A stretch of 56,529 nt of DNA from Bdellovibrionales bacterium (GTDB taxonomy: Bacteria; Bdellovibrionota; Bdellovibrionia; Bdellovibrionales; UBA1609), in the NCBI GenBank assembly GCA_020435005.1, contig JAGRAE010000002.1:1-56529 (forward strand), given 5' to 3'. The translations under genes were made by a program, and so were the position numbers. The notes under the pieces were generated by a model. That model was not told the origin of the DNA and made no database searches. It was given only the letters and a program-made list of their open reading frames with translations. Shown here in pieces: positions 7,065-39,415 of this stretch; the stretch's first letter is position 1; each line of letters starts with the position of its first letter.

Positions 7065-7067
7065 ACT

Positions 7068-8145: not shown

Positions 8146-8169
8146 GAAAATGTTCTTTTCAATTTAAAT

Positions 8170-11085
8170 TTACTCGATGGAAATAACAAATGAACTTCTG
8201 TCTATTGAAAAATTACTGTCCCCCACCACAAAAATTCTTCCATCACCATCAATTACTAAGCCGTAAGCGGTATCATCTGTTGGCGAACCTCCACAATAGC
8301 TTTCTGAATGAAATAAGCCTGAACTTGCAAAATCTGTATCTAAAGCACCTTGAGGGTCAAGCCGCCAGATTACCGCTCTATCGCCTCCACCAGAGTTATT
8401 ATAAGATCTGCCTGCAATAACAATATTTTCTTCTTCATCTAAAGCTATATCAAATCCATATGAATTGCCTAAACCGCTACTTAATGCTACGTCAGTATAT
8501 TTTCCGCCCGCGGCAAAATTTGTGTCTAAGCCAGATCCATCTGCTTTTAATTTCCATACAGACATATTGTCATATACGCCATATTCAAAACCTGTCATTA
8601 GGATATCATTGTTGGAATCAATTGTGAGAGCTGCAGCTTTACAGTTGGTGGTACAAGTTACTATGTATTTCCCATCAGAGTCAAAACCTGTATCTAAAGT
8701 TCCATCTGCTTTTAATTTCCATACTACGGCTTTGTCATAGCTTCCACTGTAAGCTGAGCCAACGACAATGATGTCGCCATTACTTAAAATTTCTAAATCT
8801 GAACCGCTTTCAATACCACCAGCGAGAACGCCGTGATTTATAAATGGGGAACCAGTATTAAAATTGGATATATATGAACCATTTGGTTCTAAGGCAAATA
8901 CAACCATATCAGCACCATTCCCACCGCCCGTGTCTGCTTCACCAGTTACAAAAATTTGATCACTAGAATTAACCTTTACCGCATACCCAATGTCATTTCC
9001 AAAACCCCAATCAATCTTAAGAATACCATCTGTGTCGAATGCTGTGTCTAATGCTCCATTTGGGTTTAGTTTTAATACTACCAGATCCTCTTGATATGAA
9101 GCATTTGTACTCTGACCGGTGACGATAATATTGCCAGAGCTGTCAATGGCTACATCATGGAATTCTTCGTCGGGTGTTCCTGGCGCTGATTGAGTCAAAT
9201 CATTAAATTTAGCCACACCATTGGTACCAAAACTTGTATCTAAGCTCCCATTGGGTAAATATCTCCAAACAACAGCATCCTTGTTTCCGCTAGAATTTTT
9301 ACTATAGCCAACAACAACTTTTCTGCCACTACTATCAATAGCGATAGCGTTAGCACTATCTTGAGAGTTGGCAGCGCCGGCAGTATTTGATTCAGTCACT
9401 ATACCATCTCCACTAAATCCATTATTAAAATTTCCTTGAGCAATAGTCTGTGGCTGGCTACCACTATGGAAACCATGATTATCTGCAGAATAAGTAGAGA
9501 AGAATTTTTTACTGTTTATTTCAAACCACGGGCATACTAAGGCTTTTTTACCATTTAGTGAGTTTGTATTTGCAAGATCAATGCTTCCTTCTACGTCTGT
9601 TAAACCCACAGCTTTTGTGGCAGCATAATAAACTGTTGGCAGATTTGGACTACTCATAGGTAAGTTTGCCACTCCTGAAATTCCACTCTTTAGAGCCATA
9701 TCGTGACAAGGTGTTATGTCTCTGTACTCTACATCTTGATCGACAATAAAAAAAGCTAAACCGTGGACCGCAGTTCCGGCGACTCCGGGTAAAAACCGCC
9801 AAGCCAGAGATGTATCATCAACATGTTGTAAAATCTGCGGACCATAAGTTCCGTCAATAACTTCAAAGGGTCCTTCAAAGGGAACGATTTTATGATCTCT
9901 TACATATTCTGGTTTAATTTTAATGCACTTATTAGTTACTAGGTTTTCATCACTGGTTGTTTCACAAGCAATGCTATCAGTTGCTGTTAATCCTGCGGAC
10001 TGTACAAAAAGAGAATCGTCATCGGCATTAATCGTTAATGCTTGAAAGTTAAGTTGATATCCCAACCAGGCGCTCTCAGTACCTCCAGAGGTGCCATTCG
10101 TTGGGTCTACATATTGGCCATAATTGTCTATAGGGTCTAACAAAGTATTACCTGAAAACTTTCTATATGCGTAAGGAGCTGGAGTATCTTCTGTTGGCAA
10201 CTGAATACTAAACTGGCTACCATTGGGCGCAGGAGTTCCATTTGAGCTAAAAAATCCTAGAACTATACTTTCTGCCTCGCCTTTCTCTGATTTGAAGTTA
10301 GATTCTCCCTCGGTATGCACTCTATAAAAATTGGGAACATTGATTTTTACTGCCGCGGAATCACTCGTCAAAAGTGGATCAATATCTTCTAAACTTTTCT
10401 CTACGAAGATGGGTGTTTTTGCACCAGTTAATTGTGCTGTGTGGATGTAAGTTAGTTTAACACCTTCAAAAAACATAAATTTAAACCACCCACTGAACAT
10501 ATACTCATCAAACAATTTCATTTTTGGCCGGCCAGTGCGTTTGGGTTGGTAGTAGCCTTCTATATGTCCTGACTTAAGTGACTCATGTCTTCCAGCTAAA
10601 CTTGCAGGCTTACCGCCACCTTCAACACTCCAATTATCTCCAATATCTACGTATACATTACCGCCATTGAAAACTACTCCAATTTCATCATCGTAGCCAA
10701 AAATCATTTGCTCAAATTCATTGGCAAACACAATTAGGACTTGAATAGTACGATTATTACCATTGGGAAAAGTTCGACCATTAAAATCTATTTGACTGGG
10801 AAAACTACAACTTGAAGGATCACCGCTTGATGAACTTTCCATTTCTTTGCAATCCCATTCATAAAAAGCTGTCTTTCCATCGAAGTGAACATTGGCGATT
10901 AGGTGCGCAGGAAAAAAACCATGGGGAATGCTAATGCCTCCCAAGCTTTGCACCTTTGAAAACTGATTAAAACTCATGCTTACTTTGGTGCCGTCGTCAT
11001 TAGATTTTCGCGTGCAGGCAGTTGAAATTGTTAATAAGAAAATAGTAAAAAATAACTTTCCAGAAAACGTTCTTAGATTCTTCAT
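8170..11085 (-). CDS. 971-aa lipoprotein: unknown N-terminal ~540 aa plus C-terminal delta-60-type repeats
   Basis: Lipobox LTISTAC. The C-terminal half has about 6 clear units with the signature LDT(S/A/G/N/D)F..(N/D/G)G (LDTSFGTNG, LDTAFDTDG, LDTGFDSDG, LDTNFAAGG, LDTDFASSG), as in the TIGRFAMs delta-60 repeat family as I recall it. Confidence 0.65.
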   Translation of the reverse strand: MKNLRTFSGKLFFTIFLLTISTACTRKSNDDGTKVSMSFNQFSKVQSLGGISIPHGFFPAHLIANVHFDGKTAFYEWDCKEMESSSSGDPSSCSFPSQIDFNGRTFPNGNNRTIQVLIVFANEFEQMIFGYDDEIGVVFNGGNVYVDIGDNWSVEGGGKPASLAGRHESLKSGHIEGYYQPKRTGRPKMKLFDEYMFSGWFKFMFFEGVKLTYIHTAQLTGAKTPIFVEKSLEDIDPLLTSDSAAVKINVPNFYRVHTEGESNFKSEKGEAESIVLGFFSSNGTPAPNGSQFSIQLPTEDTPAPYAYRKFSGNTLLDPIDNYGQYVDPTNGTSGGTESAWLGYQLNFQALTINADDDSLFVQSAGLTATDSIACETTSDENLVTNKCIKIKPEYVRDHKIVPFEGPFEVIDGTYGPQILQHVDDTSLAWRFLPGVAGTAVHGLAFFIVDQDVEYRDITPCHDMALKSGISGVANLPMSSPNLPTVYYAATKAVGLTDVEGSIDLANTNSLNGKKALVCPWFEINSKKFFSTYSADNHGFHSGSQPQTIAQGNFNNGFSGDGIVTESNTAGAANSQDSANAIAIDSSGRKVVVGYSKNSSGNKDAVVWRYLPNGSLDTSFGTNGVAKFNDLTQSAPGTPDEEFHDVAIDSSGNIIVTGQSTNASYQEDLVVLKLNPNGALDTAFDTDGILKIDWGFGNDIGYAVKVNSSDQIFVTGEADTGGGNGADMVVFALEPNGSYISNFNTGSPFINHGVLAGGIESGSDLEILSNGDIIVVGSAYSGSYDKAVVWKLKADGTLDTGFDSDGKYIVTCTTNCKAAALTIDSNNDILMTGFEYGVYDNMSVWKLKADGSGLDTNFAAGGKYTDVALSSGLGNSYGFDIALDEEENIVIAGRSYNNSGGGDRAVIWRLDPQGALDTDFASSGLFHSESYCGGSPTDDTAYGLVIDGDGRIFVVGDSNFSIDRSSFVISIE
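8173..9430 (-). repeat. Delta-60-type ~60-aa protein repeats (approximate bounds)
   Basis: Periodic LDTxF..xG ... (V/I)V(V/T)G motifs in the translated C-terminal half of the 971-aa ORF. Confidence 0.55.
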
Positions 11086-11116
11086 TTTTCTCCTCAGAAA
11101 TTAAAGACCTAATTTC

Positions 11117-11144
11117 TTTTCGGTGGATTGGACCTTAGTCTTTA
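11117..11144 (-). promoter_or_regulatory. Sigma-28-like promoter candidate TAAAGACT-N12-ACCGAAAA upstream of the 971-aa gene
   Basis: Read on the minus strand. The -35 half matches TAAAGTTT at 6/8 and the -10 half matches GCCGATAA at 6/8; the spacer is 12 nt against the canonical 11. It sits 31 nt upstream of the ATG, with the SD GAGGAG between. Confidence 0.3.
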
Positions 11145-11213
11145 GGCTTTTTGGCTATACTTTGCCTATTTCTTGTTTCAGGGTGATACAGTTTCAATTA
11201 TTATCAAATTGAT

Positions 11214-11831
11214 TTAGTAAGAAAACAAAACACCACAGAGTAAACCAAATTCAGACATAGATTCTTCGATTACACTGGCATTCATAAAGGTAGAAGATGT
11301 GACAATCTCACTTCGAATCACCATGTCACTCCTGTAGTGTAAATCAGCCCCAATTTTAATGCCGATGGTGACTCCTGAGGATTTTACCTTTTTTATTTTT
11401 TCTCCTTCGCGTGAGATTTCACCAAAGGCAAGACCCGCAGCACCACCTAAAAAGTAAGACCATTTTTTTGTAAAAAAATAGGATTCAGATTTTTGTGGGA
11501 CTATTGCCGGTACGACTCCCATATAATACCAACGCCAGGTAGCGTCGGTAAAGCCTACGCCGGAAGTAAATGGACCAAAGCGAAACCCTCTTCGATGTTC
11601 AATGGCAAAACTGAGTTTATCACTGATATTTTTTTCTAAGCCAATTCCAACAACAGCCGGACCTTCGCTGCGATTGGCATCAATATTTCCGTCATCAGTT
11701 TCTACCGTCTTTTGAATTCCAGTCCCACCAAAGCCACCTTTTAAGCCTAAGTTCCAATCTAAAGCATATGCAGAATATGATTGAAGGGTTAAAAATAATA
11801 AACTAAGCCACATTTTTTTCACTGTCATCAC
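11214..11831 (-). CDS. Small outer-membrane beta-barrel protein (OmpW/OmpA-barrel-like size)
   Basis: Signal peptide ending SAYA. Alternating hydrophobic beta-strand pattern with Gly/aromatic-rich strands, and a C-terminal FSY. The track start is a GTG at 11831; an ATG one codon downstream (11828) is equally possible. Overlaps the upstream gene by 29 nt. Confidence 0.6.
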   Translation of the reverse strand: MMTVKKMWLSLLFLTLQSYSAYALDWNLGLKGGFGGTGIQKTVETDDGNIDANRSEGPAVVGIGLEKNISDKLSFAIEHRRGFRFGPFTSGVGFTDATWRWYYMGVVPAIVPQKSESYFFTKKWSYFLGGAAGLAFGEISREGEKIKKVKSSGVTIGIKIGADLHYRSDMVIRSEIVTSSTFMNASVIEESMSEFGLLCGVLFSY

Positions 11832-13578
11832 TCTCTATTTTATCTTCACTAGAATTTATGTCTGGAACTGTAGCGGCTAGTTTATTTTTAAAAACTGTCT
11901 CTAAATTAATATCACCTAGGCCAATAAGTTGCCTTAACTTGTCCAACAAACTGTCTAGTAAAACAGATCTCTCCATTTCTCCTAAACTAGTTTCTTTTGC
12001 CAGATCATCCTTTAAAATAGCTTGTGTCATCGGTGGAACTATAGCCATGACTCGAGTCACCATGTCACTGCGAATCTGTAAGTAATTTAAAATTTCATCT
12101 GTTGATGCCCCTTTAAATAAAATTCTTAAATAGTCATCGGGCCACTCGTGTAGGAATGCTAATGATGGATTTTTTATTTTGTATTCTTCCATCATGTTGC
12201 CTTGAATTTTAGGGAGTATATTTAATGATTCCACAGAAGTTAACGAGTTAATCAATTTTGTTAACGTCATATCTAGAGACACCATACGTTCTTCAGACTC
12301 TGTAACAAAATTAGGGGCTAAATCATTTTCGATTTTTAATAATTCTTTTTCAGTGATGTCACTTAACTCTGCTGCTGTATTTAATAACTCAATCTTTTTG
12401 CTTTCATTGATTTCTTCTAAATATCTTTGTCTTTGGCTATCACTCATATAAAGAGTAACAATCGTGTTCATTTTTGCACTGTTTTGCATTAACACTTCAC
12501 TTAAGACACTAGTTTTAACTCCCCCAACGAAGGAAAAAGGTCGATGTAAAGTATCGCTTCCTAAATTTAAAGATGCCAATAAATCCCAATAAACTTGACT
12601 ATAGGCTTCAAGTCTTTCATGAGTGCTCATATTACGCATACTTTTAAAGGTTCTAGCTACATCTTCTCTGAACTCTTCTTGCAGGGGCAATGGGTTGACA
12701 ACTTTGCCTGCAGCTTCAGCTAAGCATGCAACTTGAACGATACCTTGCTCACCAAGTAAACACCATTCCTTCAAAATATAGGCTAGGTCATTTTTTAACT
12801 GAGGAACGATTTCTATAATTTGCTCTTTCACACGATTTATTTTTTCTACCATCCCCTCTTCATCTGCGCCATTATTTTTTGAAGCGACCTCACCTGAACC
12901 AATACCACCACCCGCTCCATCACCTTGCATTTCCATTTTATTACTGACATTAATGCCGGCAGCCTGACCTTTTTCAGCAGAACCTGACATTGCTTTAATA
13001 ATTATAGCGGCGAGTATTAATGCTAAAGCCAAAACCGCCAATCCAACTAAGCTTTGTAAGTCTTTAATGCTTTCATAAATGCTTTTTTGAGGAGGGATCT
13101 CTTTGCTTTCTGGCAATTTGATGGTGTGGATGATGGCTTCACCTATCTTTCCAAACTCATCTTGGACACGTTTGGAAAACCACTCCGAGACTTCTTTTGT
13201 TAACTCTTCGCCGAGATTATTTTTAAGTCCTAAAGTTATCTCTACTTTTTTAATGGCATAGTCTTCCCAATAGTTTTTTATAAATTCCTTTTCGCCAGAA
13301 TAACTTTGATAAAGGGCCTCAGGATTAATATAAGTTAAATCCAAGTCTCCAATGGGCTTATTATCTTCCTCTTTAGGCTGCACTTTGGCTATTTGTAAGC
13401 TGGCAGATACTTTAAATTCACCTTCTATCACTCTGGTAGATAATTGCTGGCTATATTTTTTAACAATAAGACTCTCAAGATAAGATCTGGCGTTCATTAA
13501 GTCGGCAGATGGAGTGCTTTGCGCTAGTGCACTCATTGGTAAAAAAAATAAAACTAAGAAATAAATCCGACAAATCAT
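11803..13578 (-). CDS. Membrane-anchored FliG-like protein (signal peptide, ~150-aa periplasmic domain, one TM, Gly-rich linker, ~350-aa FliG/MgtE_N-like helical cytoplasmic region)
   Basis: Signal peptide MICRIYFLVLFFLPMSALAQ. TM helix LVGLAVLALALILAAIIIKAM. The C-terminal segment FKGASTDEILNYL...MTQAILKDDLAKE...LRQLIGLGDINL parallels E. coli FliG LKGAEQPLREKFL...AADILRDDLANR...RRLAETGEMVI (recalled from memory). An upstream segment, NTIVTLYMSDSQRQRYLEEINESKKIELLNTAAELSDITEKELLKIENDL, resembles the FliG middle-domain pattern. Start overlaps the upstream gene stop (ATGA). Confidence 0.5.
   Translation of the reverse strand: MICRIYFLVLFFLPMSALAQSTPSADLMNARSYLESLIVKKYSQQLSTRVIEGEFKVSASLQIAKVQPKEEDNKPIGDLDLTYINPEALYQSYSGEKEFIKNYWEDYAIKKVEITLGLKNNLGEELTKEVSEWFSKRVQDEFGKIGEAIIHTIKLPESKEIPPQKSIYESIKDLQSLVGLAVLALALILAAIIIKAMSGSAEKGQAAGINVSNKMEMQGDGAGGGIGSGEVASKNNGADEEGMVEKINRVKEQIIEIVPQLKNDLAYILKEWCLLGEQGIVQVACLAEAAGKVVNPLPLQEEFREDVARTFKSMRNMSTHERLEAYSQVYWDLLASLNLGSDTLHRPFSFVGGVKTSVLSEVLMQNSAKMNTIVTLYMSDSQRQRYLEEINESKKIELLNTAAELSDITEKELLKIENDLAPNFVTESEERMVSLDMTLTKLINSLTSVESLNILPKIQGNMMEEYKIKNPSLAFLHEWPDDYLRILFKGASTDEILNYLQIRSDMVTRVMAIVPPMTQAILKDDLAKETSLGEMERSVLLDSLLDKLRQLIGLGDINLETVFKNKLAATVPDINSSEDKIESDDSEKNVA
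11902..12126 (-). other. FliG C-terminal-domain-like segment, including ILKDDLA (11998-12018)
   Basis: ILKDDLA against E. coli FliG ILRDDLA, the segment carrying the Asp-Asp pair implicated in MotA contact. Flanking FKGAS and GDINL match LKGAE and GEMVI. Confidence 0.45.
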
Positions 13579-14228
13579 TTTACCTCGGGCGCCTTTTTCT
13601 TTGCTGGTAAAGAAGCCGGCAAGCGCAATCTTTTTCGTACACTTGCTGCCATCTCTACTGCGTGGATTAGCGCTGGCTCAATTTCCAAAGCTTTTTCAAA
13701 CCACTCTAGACTTTCTTTAAAGTCACCCTTTGCATAATATATAGAAGCTTTCATTGATAAAGCTCTTGCAAACTCTGGATAGTTTTCAACTACTTTATCT
13801 ATCTCAATAAGAGCTCGCTCAAATTGTTTTGATCTAGCAAAACTCTGTGCCAAAAACATTTTGTCTAGAATTTCTTTTGCTGACTTTAGCTCTTCTATCT
13901 TTTTGTCATCTTTTTTTAGTCGTACATTTATTTCACTTTCAATTAATCCAGATGCAGACAGGGGTAACCAAATATTTCGTGTGATATAGTCTTCTTTCTC
14001 AATACTTAAGGTGACAAATTCGCCCGGCTTACCAAAACTATCAAAAGCTTCTTTGATTTCGTCATTTTTCTTTTCAATAGGAGTTACACCCAATTTTTTC
14101 TTTTCTCCAGACTCTGCATTAATTACCCATACCGTAGCCTTTTCTGGCTGTGTAATAATCTTCAGTTGCGTACTACAACCGAAGCTCAAAAATAAAATTG
14201 GAACTAATATAAAAATATAATTTTTCAT
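13575..14228 (-). CDS. Lipoprotein with N-terminal PEGA-like domain and C-terminal TPR repeats
   Basis: Lipobox LSFGC. PEGA-like stretch LKIITQPEKATVWVIN...LGVTPIEK...VTLSIEKEDY. TPR-like helices: ALIEIDKVVENYPEFARALSMKASIYYAKGDFKESLEWFEKALEIEP. Confidence 0.65.
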   Translation of the reverse strand: MKNYIFILVPILFLSFGCSTQLKIITQPEKATVWVINAESGEKKKLGVTPIEKKNDEIKEAFDSFGKPGEFVTLSIEKEDYITRNIWLPLSASGLIESEINVRLKKDDKKIEELKSAKEILDKMFLAQSFARSKQFERALIEIDKVVENYPEFARALSMKASIYYAKGDFKESLEWFEKALEIEPALIHAVEMAASVRKRLRLPASLPAKKKAPEVK

Positions 14229-14285
14229 TACTTTTTATATATCGCCAAAAAGCTAGAGAATATTAATTCAAGATTTTTAATCTAT

Positions 14286-14307
14286 ACTTAGTGTTTATAG
14301 ACTAAGT
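14286..14307 (-). terminator. Weak hairpin 6 nt after the stop of the 2303-aa gene
   Basis: ACTTAGT-N8-ACTAAGT (7-bp stem). No U-tract follows on the minus-strand transcript, so it is at best a weak or partial terminator. Confidence 0.2.
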
Positions 14308-14312
14308 GACAG

Positions 14313-17300
14313 TCAAGGTAATGAGCTTTTTATAATTAAGGCCGAAGAATTTAAATTTACCATGCCTCCACTCGGCTCAAGTCGAGTCGAGAAACGTTGT
14401 CCTGAAATAAGGGTTAAGGCTCCAGTTCTCTGTCTTTCTCTAAGGTCACTATTGAAACTTAACATAGAACTCACTTCAGCATTAAGTCCAAAACTTCCAC
14501 TGTCATTGGCATGATAAACCAGACTAACGTCGGCTGAACTTGTAATATCGTCTTCCAAATCAGCCTCAAAATAAAGCAAAGGATTTGAATATAAACTCAA
14601 GTCCAAATAAATACGGTCATCATAATAGTCTGTGCTAGAGCCCTGTGGATCCTGAAGACCGGCCATTCTATAGTAGGAAATAGCCTTGGTCAGATTTTCT
14701 AGTTTAACCCATAATCCAGCTTTGTGAAGAGCAACCGTACCTGATGAACAATTATATTCACACATGATTTGAATTTCATAGAGGTGACCTTCATTAGAAG
14801 AATTGAAATTGGCTACACCTTCATCAATGGGTATATTCGCAAGAGTAAGCGCATTATTACTGAATCGAGTATAAGTTCCATATACTAATTGCCCCACGTC
14901 ATTGTTGTTTAGAGCAACAACTCCTTCTGCTGTGCCCGTAGTAGAAACAATGGCCTCTAACTCCCAAGCATTAAAATCGGTAAGATTTTCCAAGTCATTA
15001 GCCTGGCGTAAAAACTGAATCCTTGAGTTCGGCGAAGAAAAGTCCAATGCCATAGTAGAATGAGCAAACACCTCTCCATCATTGGCTGATGGAATTTGAG
15101 AAACACTCAACAAGGGAAAATACAATTTTGTTTTAGATGCATTGCTTTGATTTACTAGTATTTTTGCTGAGTTCACTTCGACTTGTGCAGCAAAAGTAGA
15201 TGTTGATATTTTTATGCGATATTTATCGCTCCCTATATTAGGAGCAAAACTTGTTCTTAAGCGAGTATAGTCTGTTGTATTTGCAGGTAATAAAATACTG
15301 GCAATTTCCACATTTCCTTCATCCACCAAGTAAATATTGTGTGATGATGAATCTGAATTTTTTGCTATAACTTCAAATTCATAACTCGTAACACCATCAT
15401 AATCATCCGTATTTAATGAAGTCATTGTTCTTTGAAATGTAACGTCTGTTAAGTCTGAAGAGGCCAATCGTGTATCTGTTAATTCAATAGGTACTTGTAA
15501 TTTTAGAGAACCACTTCTGTTGATATTTGCTTCATTTGACACTGGACTTATACTATTATCAGCATAAACTCCGGTAACTACATAATAATAACTAACATCT
15601 GCTACAGCAGAAGTATCAATATATGAATTCGTACCCACATTGGTTATAACTCCGTAAGGTCCTCCAGAATTTTCAGATCTGGCCACATTGTAACTACTCG
15701 CTCCGGCAAGAGAGTTCCAATTCAACTGCACCCCTGAAGCAGCATTAGATGCTAACAAACTAGCGGGTCCACCATTTAAATTTATCCCTACTTCGTTAGA
15801 GTAAGCTGAAGCTACTTTCTCGAGTGTCACCGTTTGTACAACATAAAAATAAGTATTTCCAGAGACTACAGTATTGTCCGTATACTGAATTGTTGGCGCT
15901 GTTACACTAGCAATTTGACTGTAAGGACCTCCAGAGCTCGTCCCCCTTAAAATACGATAGGTATTTGCAAGTGGTGTTGAAATCCAACTTAAATTTACAG
16001 ATGAATTATCTTCAGCCGAAAGATGTAATGATTGTGGAGCTAACGGAAGAAAACCTATATTAATCCCTGAGCTAATGGCTGAGTCAGCCATGGCTCGCCC
16101 ACTGGCATCAAAAGATTTATAATAATAATAATAGGTGGTATTGGGATCGATTGTGGCATCATTGTAGGTTGTTGAAGCTATCCCAGATGCTAATAGATTA
16201 AAATCATAGCTATCAGTAGATCGATATACATTATAAGTTACGGCATTTGTTACAGCTGACCAAGACACATCTATACTTGAAGCACTTCCCCACTCCACAG
16301 TTGGTGCTGCAGATTCTAAATCCGTTACGATAATTGCATCTGGCGTGAGGGCGGACTCCATATCACCATTTGTTGCAGAAACCGCTATATAGTATGTGGT
16401 GCCTAAATTTAAACCAGCAATAACCACGTCTTGATTAGATGATGAAGTTTGAACAGGAGTCACATGACTAGGAGTAGTATCTACATAAACCTTATATGTA
16501 TTTACACCTTCTACTTTACTCCAGTCTAGAACCAGCTCTGTCCCTGTATTATTATTTCTAACAAATACCTGTGTGGGTGCTAAAGGTGTTATTCCGGGTG
16601 TAGCTCCACTTGTTGAGCTGGAAAGAGTGCTTCCTGAAGCAAAATTTGCTTGTACTTTGTAAAAGTATATCTGTCCGTTGACAGTTCCAGTATCTAAATA
16701 ACTACTTGTTGGATGGCTGGTTACTACTGAGGAAAAGTTTTTTCCATCTGAAGAGCGTAATAAATCATAGGTCAGCGCCCCACTTACTGGTGTCCATGAA
16801 ACATTGAGTTGATTATTCCCGACAGTAACAATAGGAGCCCCCGGATTAGAATATGTATAAATACTTTTTGGAGTAGTTAAGTATTCTGTAGCACTGACAA
16901 TAGCACCCACTTTAATAAAATATTGAGTGTTTGCTGAGAAACCACTCACCGTAGTTTCTGCTCCTGCTCCAGGTAAAACTGCTTTTTGCGTATAAGGACC
17001 ACCGGCTGAGGTTGCAGAATAGACAAGGTGTTGGGTGGCTGTTGGTATGGGTGTCCATTTAACTTTTATTGATGTACCAGAAACAATTTCTAGACTTACA
17101 CCAGATGGTGTCGTTGTCCCATCATTGAGTTTAGCTGATTTATAAGTAGTTAATTGACCTAGTGTTGAATCAGCAAATGTCGCTTGTACTTTATAATAAT
17201 ACCCAACTCCATTGGCGGCAGTAGAATCAATATAAGAATTTATAGCTGGATTTCCAATTTCAGAATAAACTCCATTATACTCAGTCGCTCTAAATACTTT

Positions 17301-21224: not shown

Positions 21225-21226
21225 GC

Positions 21227-24523: not shown

Positions 24524-24543
24524 TTTTATGCTCCCACATCAAC

Positions 24544-30366: not shown

Positions 30367-30428
30367 AACCTCTCCAAAATACGTACAACACTTACAAGGC
30401 TTATCTTTATTATTAATATACTATGATC

Positions 30429-30457
30429 CTATCGGCTTAAGTCGGGACCAAATAAAG
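30429..30457 (-). promoter_or_regulatory. Promoter-like motif CTTTATT-N14-GCCGATAG (sigma-28-type -10) upstream of the 1940-aa gene
   Basis: Read on the minus strand. The -10 half matches GCCGATAA at 7/8 and lies 62 nt upstream of the ATG. The upstream half is identical to that of the motA and lon sites. A TAAAGTCT box overlaps or abuts it (rc of 30456-30463), but its 19-nt spacing is non-canonical. Confidence 0.35.
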
Positions 30458-30516
30458 ACTTTAATGGGGTTTTACTAAAAAATAATATAGAAATGTGTTT
30501 TATAATGAGACAAATA

Positions 30517-31560: not shown

Positions 31561-31598
31561 GTGCTTAGAATATGCAACTTATACTTAGTTAACAAGTC

Positions 31599-32438
31599 TT
31601 ATTTTTCTTTTGCCGGTTCTCTTTGATTTAAATCTTGATAATAAAGGGTAAAACCTTGATAAATCTTTTTTGGATTTATTATCAATTGAGGATTGTTTCT
31701 CCAGATTTCTTTCCATTTATCTGAAGTTCCATATATCTTATTAGCAATTGACTTTAATGTATCTCCTTTTTGAATGAGATAGGGCTTTCCCTCTTTTTTT
31801 ACATAAACGTATTTTACATTTTCTATCGTTAATTCAGTGCCAACGTGCATTTTTGTATAATGCTTCATTTTATTTCTATTTAACTTGTAGATTTCCTTCC
31901 ACCTTAAATAGTTGCCATACTTTTCAAAGGCAATTTTCATAAGTGTATCACCAAGTTTTACTATGTACGTAACTGTTTTTCCGTCCTTGCTATCAATTTT
32001 TTTCAGTATCTTGCCCATAGATAGAGGGCCTTCATTTTTTGACGAAATTTTTCTTGCTAGTGGTCCTTTTCCATCTAAAAGTTTTTTCGGAGGTAATTGT
32101 TGTGGAAGCACTTGAGTTTCGGCAATTTCAGTTTCATTTTCAGTTTTCTCTTCTTTTAATTCTTCTGATTGTGGTGCAACTTCTACATCCTTAGCTCTTA
32201 ACTCTAGCAAGTTGGCAGAGGCATCCTGTGGCGCTAAGTAAATAGTTCCATTTTCACTAATTTCTGCAATTTCTTGAGCAATTTCAACCGGAAGCGGAAG
32301 AGCTTTTTGTGCTGGACTCAACTGCTGACGGAAGCCAGGTTCAACGTCTCGATGATCAGCACCAAAAAAGCTAGAACAGCCAGTAAGGCTAAGCAAAAGT
32401 ATTAAAATTAGTACGAAAGTAAGTCTGTATTTTCCCAT
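31599..32438 (-). CDS. Lipoprotein with acidic linker and two LysM peptidoglycan-binding domains
   Basis: Lipobox LSLTGC. LysM 1 is YIVKLGDTLMKIAFEKYGNYLRWKEIYKLN; LysM 2 is YLIQKGDTLKSIANKIYGTSDKWKEIWRNN. Confidence 0.8.
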   Translation of the reverse strand: MGKYRLTFVLILILLLSLTGCSSFFGADHRDVEPGFRQQLSPAQKALPLPVEIAQEIAEISENGTIYLAPQDASANLLELRAKDVEVAPQSEELKEEKTENETEIAETQVLPQQLPPKKLLDGKGPLARKISSKNEGPLSMGKILKKIDSKDGKTVTYIVKLGDTLMKIAFEKYGNYLRWKEIYKLNRNKMKHYTKMHVGTELTIENVKYVYVKKEGKPYLIQKGDTLKSIANKIYGTSDKWKEIWRNNPQLIINPKKIYQGFTLYYQDLNQREPAKEK

Positions 32439-32495
32439 CTTTGGTACTATCGGAGAAAAAATACAGACCTTCAGCCTTATCTAAATTTCTAGATC

Positions 32496-35400
32496 TTAGT
32501 CCCGTGGTGGAAGTGGCGGCAAGGGTATTAATGTGTCAGAATGAACCAACTTTAATATACTCTTTATCTTTAATTGAACTCGAGAATTAGCGTCTTCTAC
32601 CATAATTTTTAGAGAGTCTCGTTGTCTTACAAGATTCTCTAATATTTCTTCCAAGCGAGGCCTATCAGTCGAATGAAGTGGCGACTTTCCTAAATCAATT
32701 TCAACTTTTGAAATTTCTTTCTCTGTTATTTTCAAGTATTGCTTTAAAGGATCTAAGCTGGCTAAGCCTTTTAACTCATTGATTATAGCAATAGCCTGTT
32801 CTTTAATTAGCTGCTTTTCTTTATCAATTGATTGCGTATAAAGGTTCAGCTGTTTTTCCCTTTGTGAAATGTGATTATTTTTAACACCTAGCTTATCTTC
32901 TAATTTTTCATTTGTAGCTTTAAGTCTTTTAATTTCTTCCTTCAAACCATCTATCTCTGAATACTTATGACCTATCGCCTCGTTTACTTTTAATTTAACT
33001 GTATTTTCATTTGCTGATTCTAAATCCATCTGTGACTGTGTTAATTCATCAATCCGCTTTTTGTATTTATTAATTGTCTCTTCAAGCTCAAATTTATGTT
33101 TACCACGTATTTTCTGTAGTGAAATTTGATGTTGTTCTTGAAGTACTTTAATCTGTTCGTCTTTTTCTTGAACTATCTTCTTCTCTGTTTTTAGAAAGTC
33201 TGCTTCAATACTCTCTATTTTCTTATCATATCTTGCTATTACTTCTTTTATCTTTTCTTTTGCTTTTATATCTACCGCTTGCACCTTTAATGTATGTGCT
33301 TCTTGAGTACTTTGATATACTTCTTCTTGTTCTGATTTAAACTTGGCAATTTGCGTTTCATATTCACCTGATAATCTATCTATCTCTGTCTTATATAATG
33401 CTCTAGCTTCATCAAGTTCATTCTGAGACTTTTCTTCAAGCCATCGATATTTCTGATTAAACTCCATCTCTTGCTTGTTTATCTTCTCTTCCAGAATGTT
33501 GCTTATCTTATTAATTTTATCTTCGTAATCACTCACATAACTTGTTATTTTCTCATTGTAGTAATTGTGTATTTCGGTTTGTTTATCGTGATGTTGATCT
33601 TGAAGCGATTGGATTTTTTTACTATATTTTTCTACAATCTCTGTGTTTTCATTTTTTAAATGAGTCAGTTGTTGAGAGTAAAAGTGTTTGTCGCGATGGG
33701 CCTCTTCTAGAAGATCATTATTTCTCTTTTCTAGTTTTGTGTTTTTTAGGCTAAGCTCTTCATTTATATCTTTAAACTTGGCTCTCTCTTGTTTTAGATT
33801 TTTTTCTAGTTCTTCAATCTTCCCTTTTAGTTCTATTATTTCATACTTTTGCTGATTAACTATTTCCTCGAAAGCCTTTTTTTCGCTTATCGCAACATTT
33901 GCTTCTTCTTGTAAAGATTCAATTTGATACTTTAAGTTTACGATTTCATTTTCTAATACGCGAGACTTCTCTAAGTAATCTCCTCTTACTTCATCAGCTT
34001 GCGTTGAAATTTTTCTGTTTTCTTCAATATATTCGAAGATTTTCAATTCTGAAGAGTTGTATTTATCTTGTACTTCAGCTAGCTGCTCAGATAAAGCATC
34101 TACTTCCATCGCCCGCTGTTTACTCACATTGGCTTGGTCGCTGAGCCGGGCCTGCAAAGACTTTATTTCTCTTTCCGTTTGTTGTTTTACGTTTTCATAC
34201 TCAGATTTTAATTGGCTTAATTCTTCACGAATTTTCTCGTGCTTCGATCGCAAGTCGACCAATTCATTTTTTTTCTCGCTTATAATTTCATTTTGGTTAG
34301 ATATTTTATCTTCTAAAGTATTAACTTTAATTTGATGAGTGTTTATTTTGTCATTTAACGTTTGTCTCAGCTGAGTTAGTTCGATTGTTGATTTTTCATA
34401 ATTCTTTTGAAGCACTAATATCTCAGAAGTCTGATTCGAAATTAGACTTTCTTGATTCGAAATTTGCGCTTCAAACTCATCAATAGTAATTTGACTGTTG
34501 TTTAATAAATTGTTATGTTTTTTCTGTAAGTCATTATATTCTCTGAAAACATCATCATATTTTTCTCTAATCTCAATTAAACTTATGCTTTGTTCTTCTA
34601 ATTTACTTTTTTGACTGTTAATCTCTTCTTCTAGTTCGCATACAGTACTACTATATTTGCTTGTGATATTGTCAATTTCTTGAGATAACTTCTTGTTTTC
34701 AATTTCGAGCGTGCTTACTTTTTGTAAGTTAACATTTAAAATCTCTTCTTTTTCATTTATTTTGATTGTGTAATTTTTAATTTCGTTTCTTAATTCAGAA
34801 ATGAGTTGTTCATACTTAGACTCATTATTTATTTTATCTTTCTTTAAACTTCCTAGCTCTATACGAAGAGCATTTATATTTAACTCAAGTTTGCTAATGT
34901 TATTAGTTTTCTCTTCCATCTTTGAAAGTAGATCTTGTTTTTCTTTAACAAGTGACGAGTTTTCATTCTCTATTCTTTCTAAGGTTAGTTTATTCGAGTT
35001 CAGTTGTGTTTCCATAATCTGAACTTTTTCTTTATAGCTGCTTTTTAAATCTTCAATCTCATTTTGCAAACCCGAATGCTTTTGTTTAAATTCGACTATT
35101 ACTTTTTCTTTTTCTAGAAATTCATTATTGAAACTTTCAATTCTGCTCGCTAAAGCTTGTTTTAGTTCATCATTTTCTTCAGCTTGCTTTTCTAGATCAG
35201 CTTCTGTATTTTTTAATTTATTTTCCAAATCACTTTTTGTTGTATTTAGCAGCTGTTTTAAACTGCTCAATTCCTTGTTTAGTGTTTTGTTCTCCTCATT
35301 AATCTTTTTAAGTTCAACTTCCAAAGCTCTCTTTGCTTTTTCCACATCAATAAGGCTTTGCTTCAGCTGTTTATGCTCGACGTGCAATACGTCATATATT

Positions 35401-36389
35401 TCTTTTAATGTGTTATGTTCTTCTCGTGCTAGAGTAAGCTCAGATAAAAGATTTTTTCGCTCCTCTTTTAATAAATTTTTTTCTTCTTCTAGTGGCTTTA
35501 TAGTGAGATCGCTTTGCTGCTTCAACTCATTATATTCTTCACTTTTTTGCTCTAACTGGTTTTGCAGCTCTAAAGCTAGGGCTTCTTTTGCTTTAAGTTG
35601 TTCATTAAGTTTTTCTAGATTTTCTAAATACTTTTTATTCTCAATATCAGTCTTAATTTTGCTAAGTTTGTCATTAAAGTTAAGTTCTAATTCTTGCTTC
35701 TGTTGTGTAATACTCAGACGAAGTTGCTTTACTTCATTCTCCTTTTGCAATGCTTCGTCTGCTAAGTCTCTAATTTCTCGCTTTAAGTCTTGAACTTGAG
35801 ACTCGTAGTTGGTGATGAGCTGTTTTTTGTGCTTGGCTTCGTTTTGGATTTTAAATATTTGATCTTCTAATAGACTGTTTTTCTCTGAAACTTCTTTCAA
35901 TGATTTTTTTGCCTGATTTTTTAATTGCTCATATTTTTTTAAAGTCTCTTCTCTTTCGTTTTTTACTTTGTCAATTATTGACCTCAGATTGTTAACACTT
36001 TCTTGCATATTCTTTATGTGTTGACTTTTCTGATTAAGAAGTTTTTCCTGCCTTTCAATTACAAGCTGGTGATTTATAATTTTTCCATTCTCTGAAGATA
36101 GTCCTCTGTTTAATTCATTTATTCTTTTGTACTCGTTCTGAATTTTTAATAGCTTTTGTGTTAACTCTTTTACTCGTGATGTATTGCTTTCGATAATTTT
36201 GTTTTGCTTGCTCAAAGTTAATTTGTTGCGCTGTATTTCTCTATATAGTTGTTCTTGCTCCACATCTAGACTTGTTCCTGTTGTGGGGGCACGACTTCTC
36301 ATATCTATAACTTTATTTTCATTTTGATTTTTCTCATCAAACTCTAATTTTTCTTCATTGCAAAAATTTAACTTATCAACGTCTTTCAT
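32496..36389 (-). CDS. 1297-aa cytoplasmic coiled-coil protein with proline-rich C-terminal tail
   Basis: No signal peptide or TM. Almost the whole length is K/E/L/N/Q-rich heptad-like sequence. It ends in IPLPPLPPRD. The ATG overlaps the stop of the upstream GYF gene (TAATG at 36387-36391). Confidence 0.75.
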   Translation of the reverse strand: MKDVDKLNFCNEEKLEFDEKNQNENKVIDMRSRAPTTGTSLDVEQEQLYREIQRNKLTLSKQNKIIESNTSRVKELTQKLLKIQNEYKRINELNRGLSSENGKIINHQLVIERQEKLLNQKSQHIKNMQESVNNLRSIIDKVKNEREETLKKYEQLKNQAKKSLKEVSEKNSLLEDQIFKIQNEAKHKKQLITNYESQVQDLKREIRDLADEALQKENEVKQLRLSITQQKQELELNFNDKLSKIKTDIENKKYLENLEKLNEQLKAKEALALELQNQLEQKSEEYNELKQQSDLTIKPLEEEKNLLKEERKNLLSELTLAREEHNTLKEIYDVLHVEHKQLKQSLIDVEKAKRALEVELKKINEENKTLNKELSSLKQLLNTTKSDLENKLKNTEADLEKQAEENDELKQALASRIESFNNEFLEKEKVIVEFKQKHSGLQNEIEDLKSSYKEKVQIMETQLNSNKLTLERIENENSSLVKEKQDLLSKMEEKTNNISKLELNINALRIELGSLKKDKINNESKYEQLISELRNEIKNYTIKINEKEEILNVNLQKVSTLEIENKKLSQEIDNITSKYSSTVCELEEEINSQKSKLEEQSISLIEIREKYDDVFREYNDLQKKHNNLLNNSQITIDEFEAQISNQESLISNQTSEILVLQKNYEKSTIELTQLRQTLNDKINTHQIKVNTLEDKISNQNEIISEKKNELVDLRSKHEKIREELSQLKSEYENVKQQTEREIKSLQARLSDQANVSKQRAMEVDALSEQLAEVQDKYNSSELKIFEYIEENRKISTQADEVRGDYLEKSRVLENEIVNLKYQIESLQEEANVAISEKKAFEEIVNQQKYEIIELKGKIEELEKNLKQERAKFKDINEELSLKNTKLEKRNNDLLEEAHRDKHFYSQQLTHLKNENTEIVEKYSKKIQSLQDQHHDKQTEIHNYYNEKITSYVSDYEDKINKISNILEEKINKQEMEFNQKYRWLEEKSQNELDEARALYKTEIDRLSGEYETQIAKFKSEQEEVYQSTQEAHTLKVQAVDIKAKEKIKEVIARYDKKIESIEADFLKTEKKIVQEKDEQIKVLQEQHQISLQKIRGKHKFELEETINKYKKRIDELTQSQMDLESANENTVKLKVNEAIGHKYSEIDGLKEEIKRLKATNEKLEDKLGVKNNHISQREKQLNLYTQSIDKEKQLIKEQAIAIINELKGLASLDPLKQYLKITEKEISKVEIDLGKSPLHSTDRPRLEEILENLVRQRDSLKIMVEDANSRVQLKIKSILKLVHSDTLIPLPPLPPRD
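32499..32528 (-). other. Proline-rich C-terminal tail IPLPPLPPRD of the coiled-coil protein
   Basis: Direct translation of the last 10 codons. This is the only Pro-rich stretch in an otherwise helical protein. Confidence 0.8.
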
Positions 36390-37711: not shown

Positions 37712-37823
37712 ATCATTATTAGATTACACGAGTATCTTATATTAAAAAAACATTCTCTAAAAACTGTTATGACTAAGATATTAGTTTTTATTAAATACTG
37801 ATCTAAAGCCAGTATGAACTGGA

Positions 37824-37851
37824 CTTTATTCTGCGATTATTTTTCCGATAA
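37824..37851 (+). promoter_or_regulatory. Promoter-like motif CTTTATT-N13-TCCGATAA (sigma-28-type -10) upstream of motA
   Basis: The -10 half matches GCCGATAA at 7/8 and lies 28 nt upstream of the SD-supported ATG at 37880. The upstream half and spacing are the same as at the lon site (49891). The upstream half is not the canonical TAAA box. Confidence 0.35.
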
Positions 37852-37879
37852 CTATTCTGGACTACTAAAAGGAGATTGC

Positions 37880-38674
37880 ATGAATTTATCACCACTTTTT
37901 GGTTTATTTTTGGCCATTAGCACGGTACTTGCAACTATCTTCATGTCTACAAAAACACCACTTGTTTTTTTAGATTCACATGCTGCTGTAATTGTTATTG
38001 GTGGGACTACTGCCGCAGCCCTATTGAGTTTCTCCGGCAAGAGCATGCTAGTTATGTTGAAAGTATTTTTTGGTCGCGTGTTAAAAGGTACTCTAAATCG
38101 CTATGAAGAAGTCATTAATGAGATTGTTGAATTATCTAGAGGTTATAGGGACAACCCCAATTATTTAATAGAAAACGTTGAACAAATAAAAACACCCTTC
38201 CTTAAAGAAGCTATAGAACTCACTAACGCCGGTGGTTTATCACCCAAAGATATAGATGTTGTTTTAATGAAAAGAGCTCATACCCACTATAAACGATACG
38301 AAGAAGACTCACATATGTTTGCTACTCTTGCAAAATTCCCCCCAGCTTTTGGGTTGTTAGGAGCCGTTATTGGTATGATAACTCTTATGCAAGGTCTAGG
38401 TGGAGCAGATGCCATAAAAACAGTTGGACCTGCCATGGCCGTTGCACTTGTTGCAACAATGTATGGTATTGCTATAGCCAACTTTATTTTTATCCCATTG
38501 GGTGAAAATTTAGCTAAGTATAACAAAGCTGACAAAATTATAAGACAAATGGTTATTGATGGTGTGAAGCTAATAAGAGCTAAAAAACATCCTCTTGTGG
38601 TTGAAGAAAATATCAAGAGTTATTTAATTGCATCAGAAAGACAGGCTATTGAACACAATAAAGATGCGGCTTAA
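37880..38674 (+). CDS. motA: MotA/PomA-type stator channel protein (MotA/TolQ/ExbB family)
   Basis: Four predicted TMs with a ~100-aa cytoplasmic loop between TM2 and TM3, which is the MotA topology rather than TolQ/ExbB. C-terminal core: PPAFGLLGAVIGMITLM...MAVALVATMYGIAIANFIFIPL. I prefer the ATG at 37880 (SD AAAGGAG, 5-nt spacing) over the track start at 37814. Confidence 0.8.
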   Translation: MNLSPLFGLFLAISTVLATIFMSTKTPLVFLDSHAAVIVIGGTTAAALLSFSGKSMLVMLKVFFGRVLKGTLNRYEEVINEIVELSRGYRDNPNYLIENVEQIKTPFLKEAIELTNAGGLSPKDIDVVLMKRAHTHYKRYEEDSHMFATLAKFPPAFGLLGAVIGMITLMQGLGGADAIKTVGPAMAVALVATMYGIAIANFIFIPLGENLAKYNKADKIIRQMVIDGVKLIRAKKHPLVVEENIKSYLIASERQAIEHNKDAA

Positions 38675-38683
38675 GGAAATTTA

Positions 38684-39415
38684 ATGTCAACGGCAGAAAA
38701 ATTAAAGCCAGAAGAAGCATTTGAAGAAGAAGACGAAGTCATTGAAATTATTGATTTCGATGAAGGAGCAAAGGGACACGAAGATTCTGAAGGCATCTGG
38801 CTTCTCTCATATGCCGATATGATGACTCTCTTAATGGGCTTTTTTGCATTGTTAACGTCTATGGCCTCATTTGAAACGGAGAAGTTCGCTCAAGTTGGTA
38901 GTCAAACAGCAGAATACTTTGGTGGCGTAGTTGATAAAACCATGGAACAACTTGGCGATGAAATCTCTGAGGTTATCAAAGCAAAGGGTCTAGATGCTCA
39001 AGTGAAGGTTGAAAGAACATCTTCACAAGTTAGCATTACCTTTGAAGGAACTTTATTTTTTGAGTTAGGTTCCGTAGCACTAAAGGAGACAGCACAAGAT
39101 TTGATGTCTGAAATAATTAACATTCTTGGTGAAAAAGCACCCAACCACAAGTTTCTTATTGAGGGGCATACCGATGATTTGCCAATGAGTAAAGGATTAA
39201 TTGCCAGCAACTGGGAGTTGTCATCTCTTCGTTCAGCGGCTGTCGCTCGACTTTTTGAGAAAAAAGGCTTTGCTAGAAAACAAATTATGACCATTGGTTG
39301 GGGGGAAACAAGACCCCTAGTAAGTAATCGTGATAATACTGGACAAGCAATTAAAGAAAATCAGGCAAAAAATAGGCGAGTTGTTTTAAAGATATTAAAC
39401 CATCATCCATTATAA
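38684..39415 (+). CDS. motB: MotB-type stator protein with OmpA-like peptidoglycan-binding domain
   Basis: TM segment WLLSYADMMTLLMGFFALL carries the conserved Asp. C-terminal OmpA-like motifs: GHTDDLP...SNWELSSLRSAAVARLF...NRRVVLKI. It starts 9 nt after motA. Confidence 0.82.
   Translation: MSTAEKLKPEEAFEEEDEVIEIIDFDEGAKGHEDSEGIWLLSYADMMTLLMGFFALLTSMASFETEKFAQVGSQTAEYFGGVVDKTMEQLGDEISEVIKAKGLDAQVKVERTSSQVSITFEGTLFFELGSVALKETAQDLMSEIINILGEKAPNHKFLIEGHTDDLPMSKGLIASNWELSSLRSAAVARLFEKKGFARKQIMTIGWGETRPLVSNRDNTGQAIKENQAKNRRVVLKILNHHPL

Follow-up and report, generated by a model that had tools for sequence, protein, structure and literature searches.

We analyzed a stretch of 56,529 nucleotides (hereafter the window) from a Bdellovibrionales bacterium (assembly GCA_020435005.1, contig JAGRAE010000002.1, positions 1 to 56,529 of the forward strand), in which a locus at 8170-39415 combines a membrane-anchored FliG homologue, a MotA/MotB stator pair and a series of predicted envelope proteins that includes giant lipoproteins. 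Eleven genes lie on the minus strand (8170-37711) and were named G1 to G11 from low to high coordinates, and MotA and MotB lie on the plus strand, divergent to them. The features of the locus are listed below with their main evidence in parentheses.

8170..11085, minus: G1, 971-aa delta-60/DUF5122 beta-propeller lipoprotein (TIGR02608 9e-62)
11214..11831, minus: G2, small outer-membrane beta-barrel-like protein of ~200 aa (weak OMP_b-brl)
11803..13578, minus: G3, signal peptide, periplasmic FliF-RBM-like domain, transmembrane (TM) helix, Gly-rich linker and cytoplasmic FliG-like N, M and C domains (profile, Foldseek)
13575..14228, minus: G4, lipoprotein of 217 aa, with a beta domain (PEGA-like at best) at the N-terminus and TPR repeats at the C-terminus (TPR_2 7e-11)
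14313..21224, minus: G5, 2303-aa fn3/Ig-rich putative lipoprotein (Pfam fn3 1.4e-13)
21227..24523, minus: G6, lipoprotein of 1098 aa, with a Big_1 domain and an integrin-alpha-like propeller of 12 FG-GAP/VCBS repeats (Pfam, lipobox LSGC)
24544..30366, minus: G7, 1940-aa lipoprotein with fn3, Big_1/invasin-like Ig and NHL/PGW beta-propeller-like repeats (Pfam, lipobox VAGC)
30517..31560, minus: G8, secreted protein of 347 aa, beta-sandwich-like in its N-terminal domain and beta-rich in its C-terminal half, with Phe as the last residue (signal peptide)
31599..32438, minus: G9, lipoprotein with two LysM peptidoglycan-binding domains (Pfam LysM, lipobox LTGC)
32496..36389, minus: G10, 1297-aa cytoplasmic coiled-coil protein with the proline-rich tail IPLPPLPPRD (coiled-coil-type matches)
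[quoted passage not shown]
37712..37879, no strand: divergent spacer of 168 nt with a sigma-28/FliA-like motif for motA (sequence)
37880..38674, plus: MotA/PomA-type stator A subunit (Pfam MotA_ExbB, NCBIfam PomA/MotA)
38684..39415, plus: MotB-type stator B subunit with a TM helix carrying Asp, a plug and an OmpA-like peptidoglycan-binding domain (Pfam, NCBIfam)

In the six-frame list of open reading frames (ORFs), the run from G1 to G11 has gaps of 128, 84, 2, 20, 150, 38 and 57 nt. G11 and G10 are joined by a TAATG overlap (36387-36391) and G4 and G3 by an ATGA overlap (13575-13578), both read in the sequence, and G3 and G2 overlap by 29 nt (11803-11831, derived from the ORF coordinates). 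The longest MotA ORF begins at 37814; we set the start at ATG 37880 (MNLSPLF...), the start of all homologues, so the divergent spacer is 168 nt. An earlier reading of the locus made from its letters and ORFs (the sequence-only reading) had described the same layout, and its coordinates, strands, lengths, gaps and overlaps were all reproduced, including the 168-nt spacer once MotA is started at the homologue-supported ATG. Pfam and NCBIfam returned most of the domains that it had called (MotA_ExbB, MotB_plug with OmpA, GYF_2, two LysM, TPR, twelve FG-GAP, fn3, Big_1, delta-60 and coiled coil), and a Pfam scan of the large window ORFs found no fli/flg/flh, pilus, Gld or TolQR genes, in agreement with it. 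Lipoboxes are clear in G4, G6, G7 and G9 and plausible in G1 and G5; the four giant lipobox proteins that it had proposed are thus clear for G6 and G7 and plausible for G1 and G5, and G1 is probably not a member of the system.

The FliG homologue and its stator

Pfam and NCBIfam gave no match in the window G3. A profile of ten G3 homologues searched against PDB sequences found FliG entries only (best E 5.6e-6, a Vibrio FliF-FliG fusion), and with a profile of the 111-sequence family the top 14 matches were all FliG (T. maritima FliG-MC, E 5e-18). The AF2 model of G3 (predicted local distance difference test, pLDDT, 69) likewise had FliG as its top 14 PDB matches in Foldseek, with ~320 columns aligned and the N, M and C domains all spanned, and the most distant family member (related locus L019) matches Pfam FliG_M above the gathering score. 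These profile and model comparisons firmly confirmed the cytoplasmic part of G3 as a true FliG homologue; the FliG-like call of the sequence-only reading was therefore borne out despite the silence of Pfam and NCBIfam on the window protein itself.

The N-terminal 150 residues that follow the cleavable signal peptide of G3 fold as alpha-beta-(alpha)-beta-alpha-beta in the AF2 model, and Foldseek related them weakly but specifically to FliF RBM3/S-ring (E ~0.3, probability 0.98), with one RBM-like domain only. One TM helix and a Gly-rich linker come next. Because the RBM-like domain, the TM helix and the FliG region occur in one sequence, G3 may be described as a topologically miniature FliF(RBM)-TM-FliG fusion, and FliF-FliG fusions are known to assemble rings (PMC6079021). 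In the G3 family, PSLAF[LV]xEW is invariant and aligns with the MFxF hinge of FliG, and the acidic pair of the torque helix (E. coli FliG D288/D289) is universally [DE][DE], in a [DE][DE]L motif. The position of FliG R281 has become PPM, and the FliM-binding EHPQR motif is not kept, QNPK-like residues standing in its place. An exhaustive profile search of 1.84 billion representatives gave 319 family clusters (50% identity) at E<1e-3, of which 159 reached E<1e-30; lengths were 570-700 aa with few exceptions, and the representatives looked up were all unnamed or "hypothetical".

MotA matched Pfam MotA_ExbB (1e-21) and scored far better against the NCBIfam models PomA (5e-40) and MotA (1.5e-37) than against TolQ (1e-9) and ExbB (2.5e-3); all NCBIfam scores fall below the equivalog cut-offs, and the protein was therefore placed in a divergent clade. 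MotB matched Pfam MotB_plug (1.9e-13) and OmpA (1.7e-18) with MotD as its best NCBIfam model (3.5e-38), and it has the marks of a B subunit, namely the TM motif SYADMMTLL with the TM Asp, the plug and the OmpA-like domain. MotB always follows MotA in the related loci, with other genes inserted between the two in L023. On these scores the stator is flagellar-type and not Tol, Exb, Agl or Zor.

Aligned with Vibrio PomA, MotA has no indels across the cytoplasmic domain and loop, a PomA-like length and both channel prolines, and the Arg equivalent to E. coli R90/PomA R88 is kept in all MotAs of the clade. The positions matching PomA E96/E97 (E. coli E98), in a loop whose alignment is uncertain, are non-acidic in the clade and often Lys. 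In the flagellar motor, MotA R90 pairs with FliG D288/D289 and MotA E98 with FliG R281 (PMC12505986). At the present loci the first pair is kept on both MotA and G3 and the second is lost on both, which fits a dedicated MotA-G3 interface, as we infer from the loop alignments.

Moreover, the two proteins share their last residues: Ala-Ala is the C-terminus of 103 of the 128 MotAs in the clade and of 83 among 126 full-length G3 proteins (families P0012-P0139 and P0140-P0289), and most of the others end in AS or VA. Both C-termini are cytoplasmic, and the window sites are 38666-38671 for MotA and 11806-11811 for G3. E. coli MotA and Vibrio PomA are not known to end in Ala-Ala. The shared ending could be an ssrA-like ClpXP degron or a common docking motif.

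G3 is flanked by two small envelope proteins. TPR repeats were found in 14 of 14 homologues of G4 and a lipobox in all of them, and the G4 family profile matched generic TPR proteins only in the PDB; PEGA was found in a single homologue of the 14 (E 0.0037), and the PEGA domain assigned to G4 by the sequence-only reading was not upheld. G2 always stands directly after G3 with an overlap of 26-29 nt. The window G2 matches OMP_b-brl weakly (0.0048), as do 4 of 13 homologues (best E 6.5e-5), and nearly all homologues have a signal peptide and a C-terminal aromatic residue; the G2 family profile had no match in the PDB. Of the two outer-membrane barrels proposed earlier, G2 is thus weakly favored and the second, G8, was not supported.

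Co-conservation and locus types

We collected 21 distinct related loci (numbers with the prefix L) from public assemblies and from a scan of GTDB species genomes, and compared their contexts by tblastn/blastp. The GTDB scan gave 13 loci, all from metagenome-assembled genomes (MAGs) of Bdellovibrionales, Pseudobdellovibrionaceae or Oligoflexia and one MAG labelled Pseudomonadota. In the 21 loci we met these proteins again, in at least 10 different gene orders; because one gene set recurs in shuffled orders over so many loci, the arrangement is more than chance. MotAB lies among system genes in 14 of the 21, and the co-conservation with motAB that the sequence-only reading had predicted was indeed found. 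When six further members of the MotA clade (L021-L026) were picked by MotA similarity alone, all seven members checked for context (the window and these six) adjoined system genes. MotA is the best conserved component, with 48-78% identity in the related clusters vs 22-53% for G3.

G4-G3-G2 form an invariant triplet, and G5 (~2300 aa) and G6 (~1100 aa) go along at conserved length. The position of MotAB varies around them: between G8 and G4 on the opposite strand in L003, directly after G2 in L012, L014 and L015, directly after G3 in L019, divergent from G4 in L020, beside the GYF gene in L007, and divergent from G7-G6-G5 in L026. G4-G3-G2-MotA-MotB make up one string in L012, L014, L015, L022 and L023. 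L021 (on the same MAG contig as L001) and L024 repeat the order of the window, and L025 has MotA-MotB-GYF-coiled coil-LysM-G8-G7 co-directional on one strand. For 11 of the related loci, called genes with Pfam lists were available, and no flagellar genes were found in these lists.

As judged from these comparisons, the conserved core is G4, G3, G2, MotA and MotB. A long type (window, L003, L007, L012, L015, L020, L021, L024-L026) has the core together with G5, G6 and G8-G11, and G7 in a subset (window, L021, L024-L026); a short type (cultured Bdellovibrio, L023, L019) has the five-gene core. The conserved unit is therefore smaller than the sequence-only reading had it: the G4-G3-G2-MotAB core stood, G5, G6 and G8-G11 hold for one sub-type, G7 is confined to a subset, and G1 probably falls outside. 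Recurring neighbors of the short type are a HAMP-SpoIIE (PP2C) phosphatase, a FecR-like protein, VWA_2 and other proteins of ~1000 aa, and in L023 the HAMP-SpoIIE and FecR-like genes are inserted between motA and motB. Sites of HAMP-SpoIIE and FecR-like genes are 12496-13980 in L019, 4247-5971 and 6021-6803 in L022, and 10787-12496 and 12552-13229 in L023. Such neighbors hint at signalling into or out of the system.

L022 comes from the cultured, completely sequenced strain Bdellovibrio sp. SKB1291214, with the operon at WP_088615011 to WP_088615014 plus WP_265437738, and the same 90%-identity clusters of MotA and of the TPR protein hold the strains ZAP7 (DOM22_13355 to DOM22_13370), KM01, HCB209 and HCB185ZH. 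The core is thus present in cultured, genetically tractable Bdellovibrio (SKB1291214, ZAP7, KM01), where it is annotated as hypothetical.

The G11 protein of the long type matched Pfam GYF_2 (3.3e-8), and the best PDB match of its family profile was 7z3c_A, the NMR structure of the GYF domain of Myxococcus xanthus AgmX/GltJ (E 1.3e-7); Pfam gave no zinc-ribbon or TonB-C match. A word-indexed homology search with G11 returned only itself, and its homologues (L003, L007, L015, L017, L020, L021, L024, L025) were recovered from the loci by tblastn/blastp. They also have a conserved C-x-S-C pair and, close to the C-terminus where the predicted periplasmic domain ends, a shared G[ML]P[PS][RK] motif (window 36392-36420). 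A 320-aa lipoprotein with weak FlgT_C and CsgG matches (E ~1e-3) is encoded directly upstream of the GYF gene in L003 (321-1283) and has no window counterpart.

G10, which is translationally coupled to G11 through the TAATG overlap, had coiled-coil-type matches only in Pfam and NCBIfam. Its conservation is confined to the C-terminal ~120 aa (total length 278-1350 aa), and a PPLPP-like C-terminal motif is present in 7 of 7 homologues from 7 loci. In Myxococcus, the GYF domain of GltJ binds a proline-rich sequence in AglZ, a long coiled-coil protein, and focal-adhesion assembly depends on the interaction (PMC11135422). Because the GltJ GYF domain is the top PDB match and the PPLPP tail is conserved, the analogy drawn in the sequence-only reading is well founded; by their sequences, G11 and G10 are analogues, not orthologues, of GltJ and AglZ.

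Among the other envelope proteins, G9 matched Pfam LysM (1.4e-8) in 2 stretches after its lipobox LTGC and has homologues in 7 loci. G8 has a signal peptide, the C-terminus LGLSF and homologues in L003, L015, L021, L024 and L025; it had no Pfam match, its single-sequence AF2 model was poor (pLDDT 39), and hhalign showed no relation to G2. G8 may be a candidate outer-membrane barrel. Designed Kelch 'SAKe' proteins were the only PDB matches of the G8 profile and were rejected as beta-repeat/composition noise. G7, with lipobox VAGC and PGW repeats, has homologues of ~1826-1946 aa in L021 (73% identity), L024, L025 and L026. G6 matched Pfam FG-GAP_3 (2.5e-57), and its homologues (1089-1119 aa) adjoin G5 in L003, L005, L007, L012, L018, L020 and L026. 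G5 is the most length-conserved giant component and occurs in nearly all long-type loci, its homologues sharing 37-57% identity over the full length and mostly measuring 2294-2326 aa (1923 aa in L006). Comparing each giant protein with itself by BLAST was uninformative. G1 had no homologue in any of the related loci, and even in L001/L008, the closest relative, G2 is followed by unrelated genes; G1 is therefore probably outside the system, to which the sequence-only reading had assigned this delta-60 protein, and is probably an independent, lineage-specific surface protein beside it.

Promoter-like motifs were sought with a relaxed pattern guided by the published Bdellovibrio FliA/attack-phase consensus TTAAG-N16-CCGATA (PMC3627812). 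CTTTAT-N15-CCGATAA lies 28 nt upstream of motA (37826-37851, plus strand), and this sigma-28-like motif is conserved in L021, L024, L025 and L026. Others lie upstream of G7 (30430-30455, minus), G4 (14240-14266, minus) and G1 (11118-11144, minus), those of G4 and G7 being partly conserved in L001, L025 and L026. Nothing in the window fitted the strict sigma-28 pattern TAAA-N14-16-CCGATA, and the numbers of sigma-70 sites and terminators predicted in 7400-14400 did not exceed those in shuffles. The relaxed motifs suggest common attack-phase expression of the genes that carry them.

Proposed function and alternatives

The sequence-only reading had seen in the locus an ion-driven adhesin machine for gliding or attachment; the co-conservation and the FliG and GYF homologies that it relied on were found, and the gliding or attachment role itself remains conjectural. 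To the explanation that we favor, a non-flagellar, envelope-spanning, stator-driven adhesin machine, made from flagellar motor parts and restricted to Bdellovibrionota, we give about an even chance. In such a machine, MotB would anchor an ion-driven PomAB/MotAB-type stator to peptidoglycan, ion flow would turn the MotA pentamer, and MotA would push G3 at its FliG-like C-domain; the MotA Arg and the acidic pair of the torque helix are both conserved. G3 would serve as a rotor ring or as a pushed track element, and its periplasmic domain would hand the movement on to the co-translated G4 and to the small outer-membrane G2. In the long type, the GYF domain of G11 would bind the proline-rich tail of G10 to form a cytoplasmic platform, by analogy with GltJ-AglZ, the LysM lipoprotein G9 and the secreted beta protein G8 would position the machine, and the giant Ig/fn3/FG-GAP lipoproteins G5, G6 and G7 would be moved or tensioned at the cell surface as its output. 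The purpose might be surface gliding or prey/substrate attachment, probably in attack phase.

FliG and flagellar-type (FIT) stators are regarded as flagellum-specific. A 2025 survey of MotAB evolution defines the FIT clade by flagellar function (PMC12505986). The proposal, if true, would be the first sign that the flagellar torque-generating pair has been re-used for another machine. The surprise lies in a conserved, membrane-anchored homologue of FliG, joined to a FliF-like domain and placed in one operon with a FIT-type stator, plus outer-membrane, peptidoglycan-binding and adhesin-like genes. Literature searches on FliG-like non-flagellar proteins, on Bdellovibrio gliding with MotA/FliG and on HD100 locus tags found no description of the system, and the full texts searched agree with the earlier statement that no system of this composition had been described. 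The gliding machinery of Bdellovibrio "remains unidentified" (2026 review, PMC13104615), and the cluster is possibly the missing gliding engine of Bdellovibrio-like predatory bacteria. A bolder version, which we hold only tentatively and consider rather doubtful, makes G3 a free-standing miniature FliF-FliG rotor ring without export gate or axial structure, spun by PomAB-like stators and moving the giant fn3/FG-GAP lipoproteins through G4 and G2; it would be a second independent use of the rotor-stator pair and the gliding/prey-attachment engine of Bdellovibrionota.

Several points weigh against such a machine. The mechanics of all components are read from sequence, ring formation by G3 is predicted only, the FliF/RBM similarity is weak (E ~0.3), and the surface exposure of the giant lipoproteins is an assumption. 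Within 10 kb of the short Bdellovibrio-type operon there are VWA, HAMP-SpoIIE and FecR-like genes in place of GYF, G5 or G6 genes, and the function of the core therefore need not be adhesin movement. The stator groups with flagellar (PomA-like) proteins, and a sigma-28-type motif, typical of flagellar class III genes, stands at motA; FliA drives two thirds of the attack-phase promoters of B. bacteriovorus (PMC3627812), so this motif cannot separate a flagellar from a non-flagellar role. In strain HD100, motAB1 (Bd0144/0145) occupies 128279-129831, that is 1553 bp, vs 1844 bp for motAB2 and 1793 bp for motAB3 (PMC11323537, Table S5). The motAB span in L022 is 1553 bp, identical to that of HD100 motAB1; from this identity and the strain distribution, the Bdellovibrio ortholog of the cluster stator is probably MotAB1, and the five-gene core probably stands beside Bd0144/0145 in HD100. 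Literature searches with the locus tags Bd0141-0143 and Bd3022-3024 gave no relevant papers. Deletion of each motAB pair reportedly reduced swimming (Morehouse et al. 2011). In favor of the machine, a comparative preprint finds motAB1 absent from epibiotic predators and motAB3 universal (PMC11870529).

The main alternative, which we consider unlikely, is that the cluster is an accessory flagellar stator module, its MotAB1-type pair being interchangeable with other stators of the one sheathed flagellum. G4 and G2 would then be stator scaffolds comparable to PflA/PflB, MotX/MotY or FlgT/FlgP, G3 a membrane-anchored FliG decoy that parks, recruits or regulates stators, and the adhesin, GYF and coiled-coil genes co-regulated attack-phase neighbors. 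The reported swimming contribution of each motAB pair speaks for it, as do the best scores of MotA and MotB against the flagellar PomA, MotA and MotD models, the sigma-28-like motif upstream of motA, and the weak FlgT_C/CsgG match in the lipoprotein beside the L003 cluster; the HD100 motAB pairs are also treated as flagellar stators, Bdellovibrio and like organisms (BALOs) carrying 1-4 pairs (PMC11323537). The likeness to the flagellar motor extends to a PomA-like MotA and a MotB with plug and OmpA-like domain, to G3, which is homologous to FliG M and C and by fold also to N, with the acidic pair and the MFxF-like hinge kept, and to the periplasmic FliF-like domain and TM helix, as in ring-assembling FliF-FliG fusions. 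However, genes for an export apparatus, rod, hook, filament, FliM/FliN and FliL are lacking in the window and in the 11 related loci with called genes, in none of which the cluster is near flagellar genes. There is no FliF MS-ring with RBM1-3, G3 being a single 590-aa chain with one RBM-like domain; with the loss of the FliM-binding EHPQR motif and no FliM/FliN partner, the loss of the R281 equivalent, and a non-acidic MotA position matching E. coli E98/PomA E96-97, G3 and its stator depart from flagellar usage, and the partners here are a TPR lipoprotein, an outer-membrane protein, a GYF protein, a coiled coil and giant lipoproteins. Through repeated rearrangement the GYF, coiled-coil, LysM, G5 and G6 genes have stayed linked to the cluster, which would be unlikely if they were mere neighbors. 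We know of no flagellar motor with a second, membrane-anchored FliG that bears its own FliF-like domain. Even if the stator-module explanation were right, a membrane-bound FliG paralogue handling one stator set would be a new element of the flagellar motor.

A mechanosensory or signalling device, in which the stator and FliG-like couple would be a load or surface sensor feeding partner-switching or c-di-GMP-type signalling and controlling the switch between attack phase, growth and biofilm, appears quite improbable. It draws on the HAMP-SpoIIE and FecR-like genes inside or beside the short operon in L019, L022 and L023, on the common C-terminal -AA of MotA and G3, which suggests regulated turnover, and on motA3 and fliL mutations that switch B. 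bacteriovorus to host-independent growth and alter c-di-GMP (PMC11323537). Yet the long-type clusters, the window included, have no signalling gene, and ~5,300 aa of conserved structural lipoproteins (G5-G7) with peptidoglycan and outer-membrane components exceed what a sensor would need. That an ordinary motAB stands by chance next to unrelated adhesin and envelope genes is hardly credible: the window motAB is divergently transcribed and 24 kb from G3, but the families are linked in at least 10 gene orders across Bdellovibrionales, Oligoflexia and one Pseudomonadota-labelled MAG, MotAB is embedded between system genes in several loci, and synteny effectively refutes the idea. Zorya-like anti-phage defence, a MotAB homologue with a long coiled-coil component, has a probability close to nil. 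MotB matches the PADLOC ZorB models (E 2.6e-19) and the locus has a long coiled-coil protein, but ZorB at 67 bits is well below MotD at 132 bits, as in a generic MotB match, PADLOC gave no ZorA match for MotA and no ZorC, ZorD or ZorE, and the coiled coil is encoded by a gene of its own instead of forming a tail of MotA; on the PADLOC results, we rejected Zorya and other defence functions.

Returning to the stator-driven adhesin machine, it has a parallel in M. xanthus Agl-Glt, which follows the same overall logic of an ion-driven 5:2-type motor, an inner-membrane platform, peptidoglycan and outer-membrane parts and an adhesin. G11 has an N-terminal cytoplasmic GYF domain whose nearest solved relative is that of GltJ, it is paired with a long coiled coil bearing a proline-rich sequence, as in AglZ, TPR lipoproteins and outer-membrane beta proteins occur in both, and VWA-domain proteins beside the short-type operon are comparable to CglB. 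In contrast, the motor here is MotAB/PomAB-type and not the TolQR-type AglRQS, the FliG-like partner has no Glt counterpart, the proline-rich sequence of G10 is C-terminal with no receiver domain, and G11 is without the zinc ribbon of GltJ; no GltA-K, MglA or MreB was seen in the loci by general Pfam/NCBIfam scans, in which no dedicated Glt profiles were used. Bacteroidota GldLM-T9SS-SprB is similar in that a rotary stator fixed to peptidoglycan or membrane would drive giant repetitive surface adhesins, but the cluster proteins had no GldL, GldM, GldK, GldN, SprB or T9SS C-terminal-domain match (Pfam, NCBIfam), and force would be taken up in the cytoplasm by the FliG-like domain and not by periplasmic GldM. 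Tol-Pal/TonB likewise couples a 5:2 motor to the outer membrane and includes a CpoB-like TPR protein and peptidoglycan anchoring of the OmpA-like kind, whereas the present MotA scores far better against flagellar models than against TolQ/ExbB, TolA, TonB, TolB and Pal are absent, and a FliG-like coupling protein is present. We place the system among the 5:2-stator-driven envelope machines; that it is a categorically new rotary device is possible and in our view not probable.

Surrounding genes

The remaining large ORFs of the window are housekeeping or mobile (ThiF, a tRNA synthetase, acyl-CoA carboxylase, a HepT/MNT pair, TatBC, an M16 peptidase, GrpE, DnaJ, Lon and HNH). The HepT-like RNase and MNT/Pol-beta nucleotidyltransferase form a toxin-antitoxin pair at 6651-7460 (minus), just beyond the locus. 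Two small ORFs beyond tatBC, of 171 aa (41323-41838, minus) and 199 aa (40598-41197, minus), had no Pfam match, and the former resembles a STAS anti-sigma-antagonist domain by eye. An HNH/HNH_5 endonuclease ORF of 454 aa lies at 54303-55667. In the closest relative, L001, an HNH ORF of 425 aa from the same Pfam families and a 327-aa ORF split the G5-G4 junction (7744-9021), and the HNH ORF at this junction may be a mobile element.

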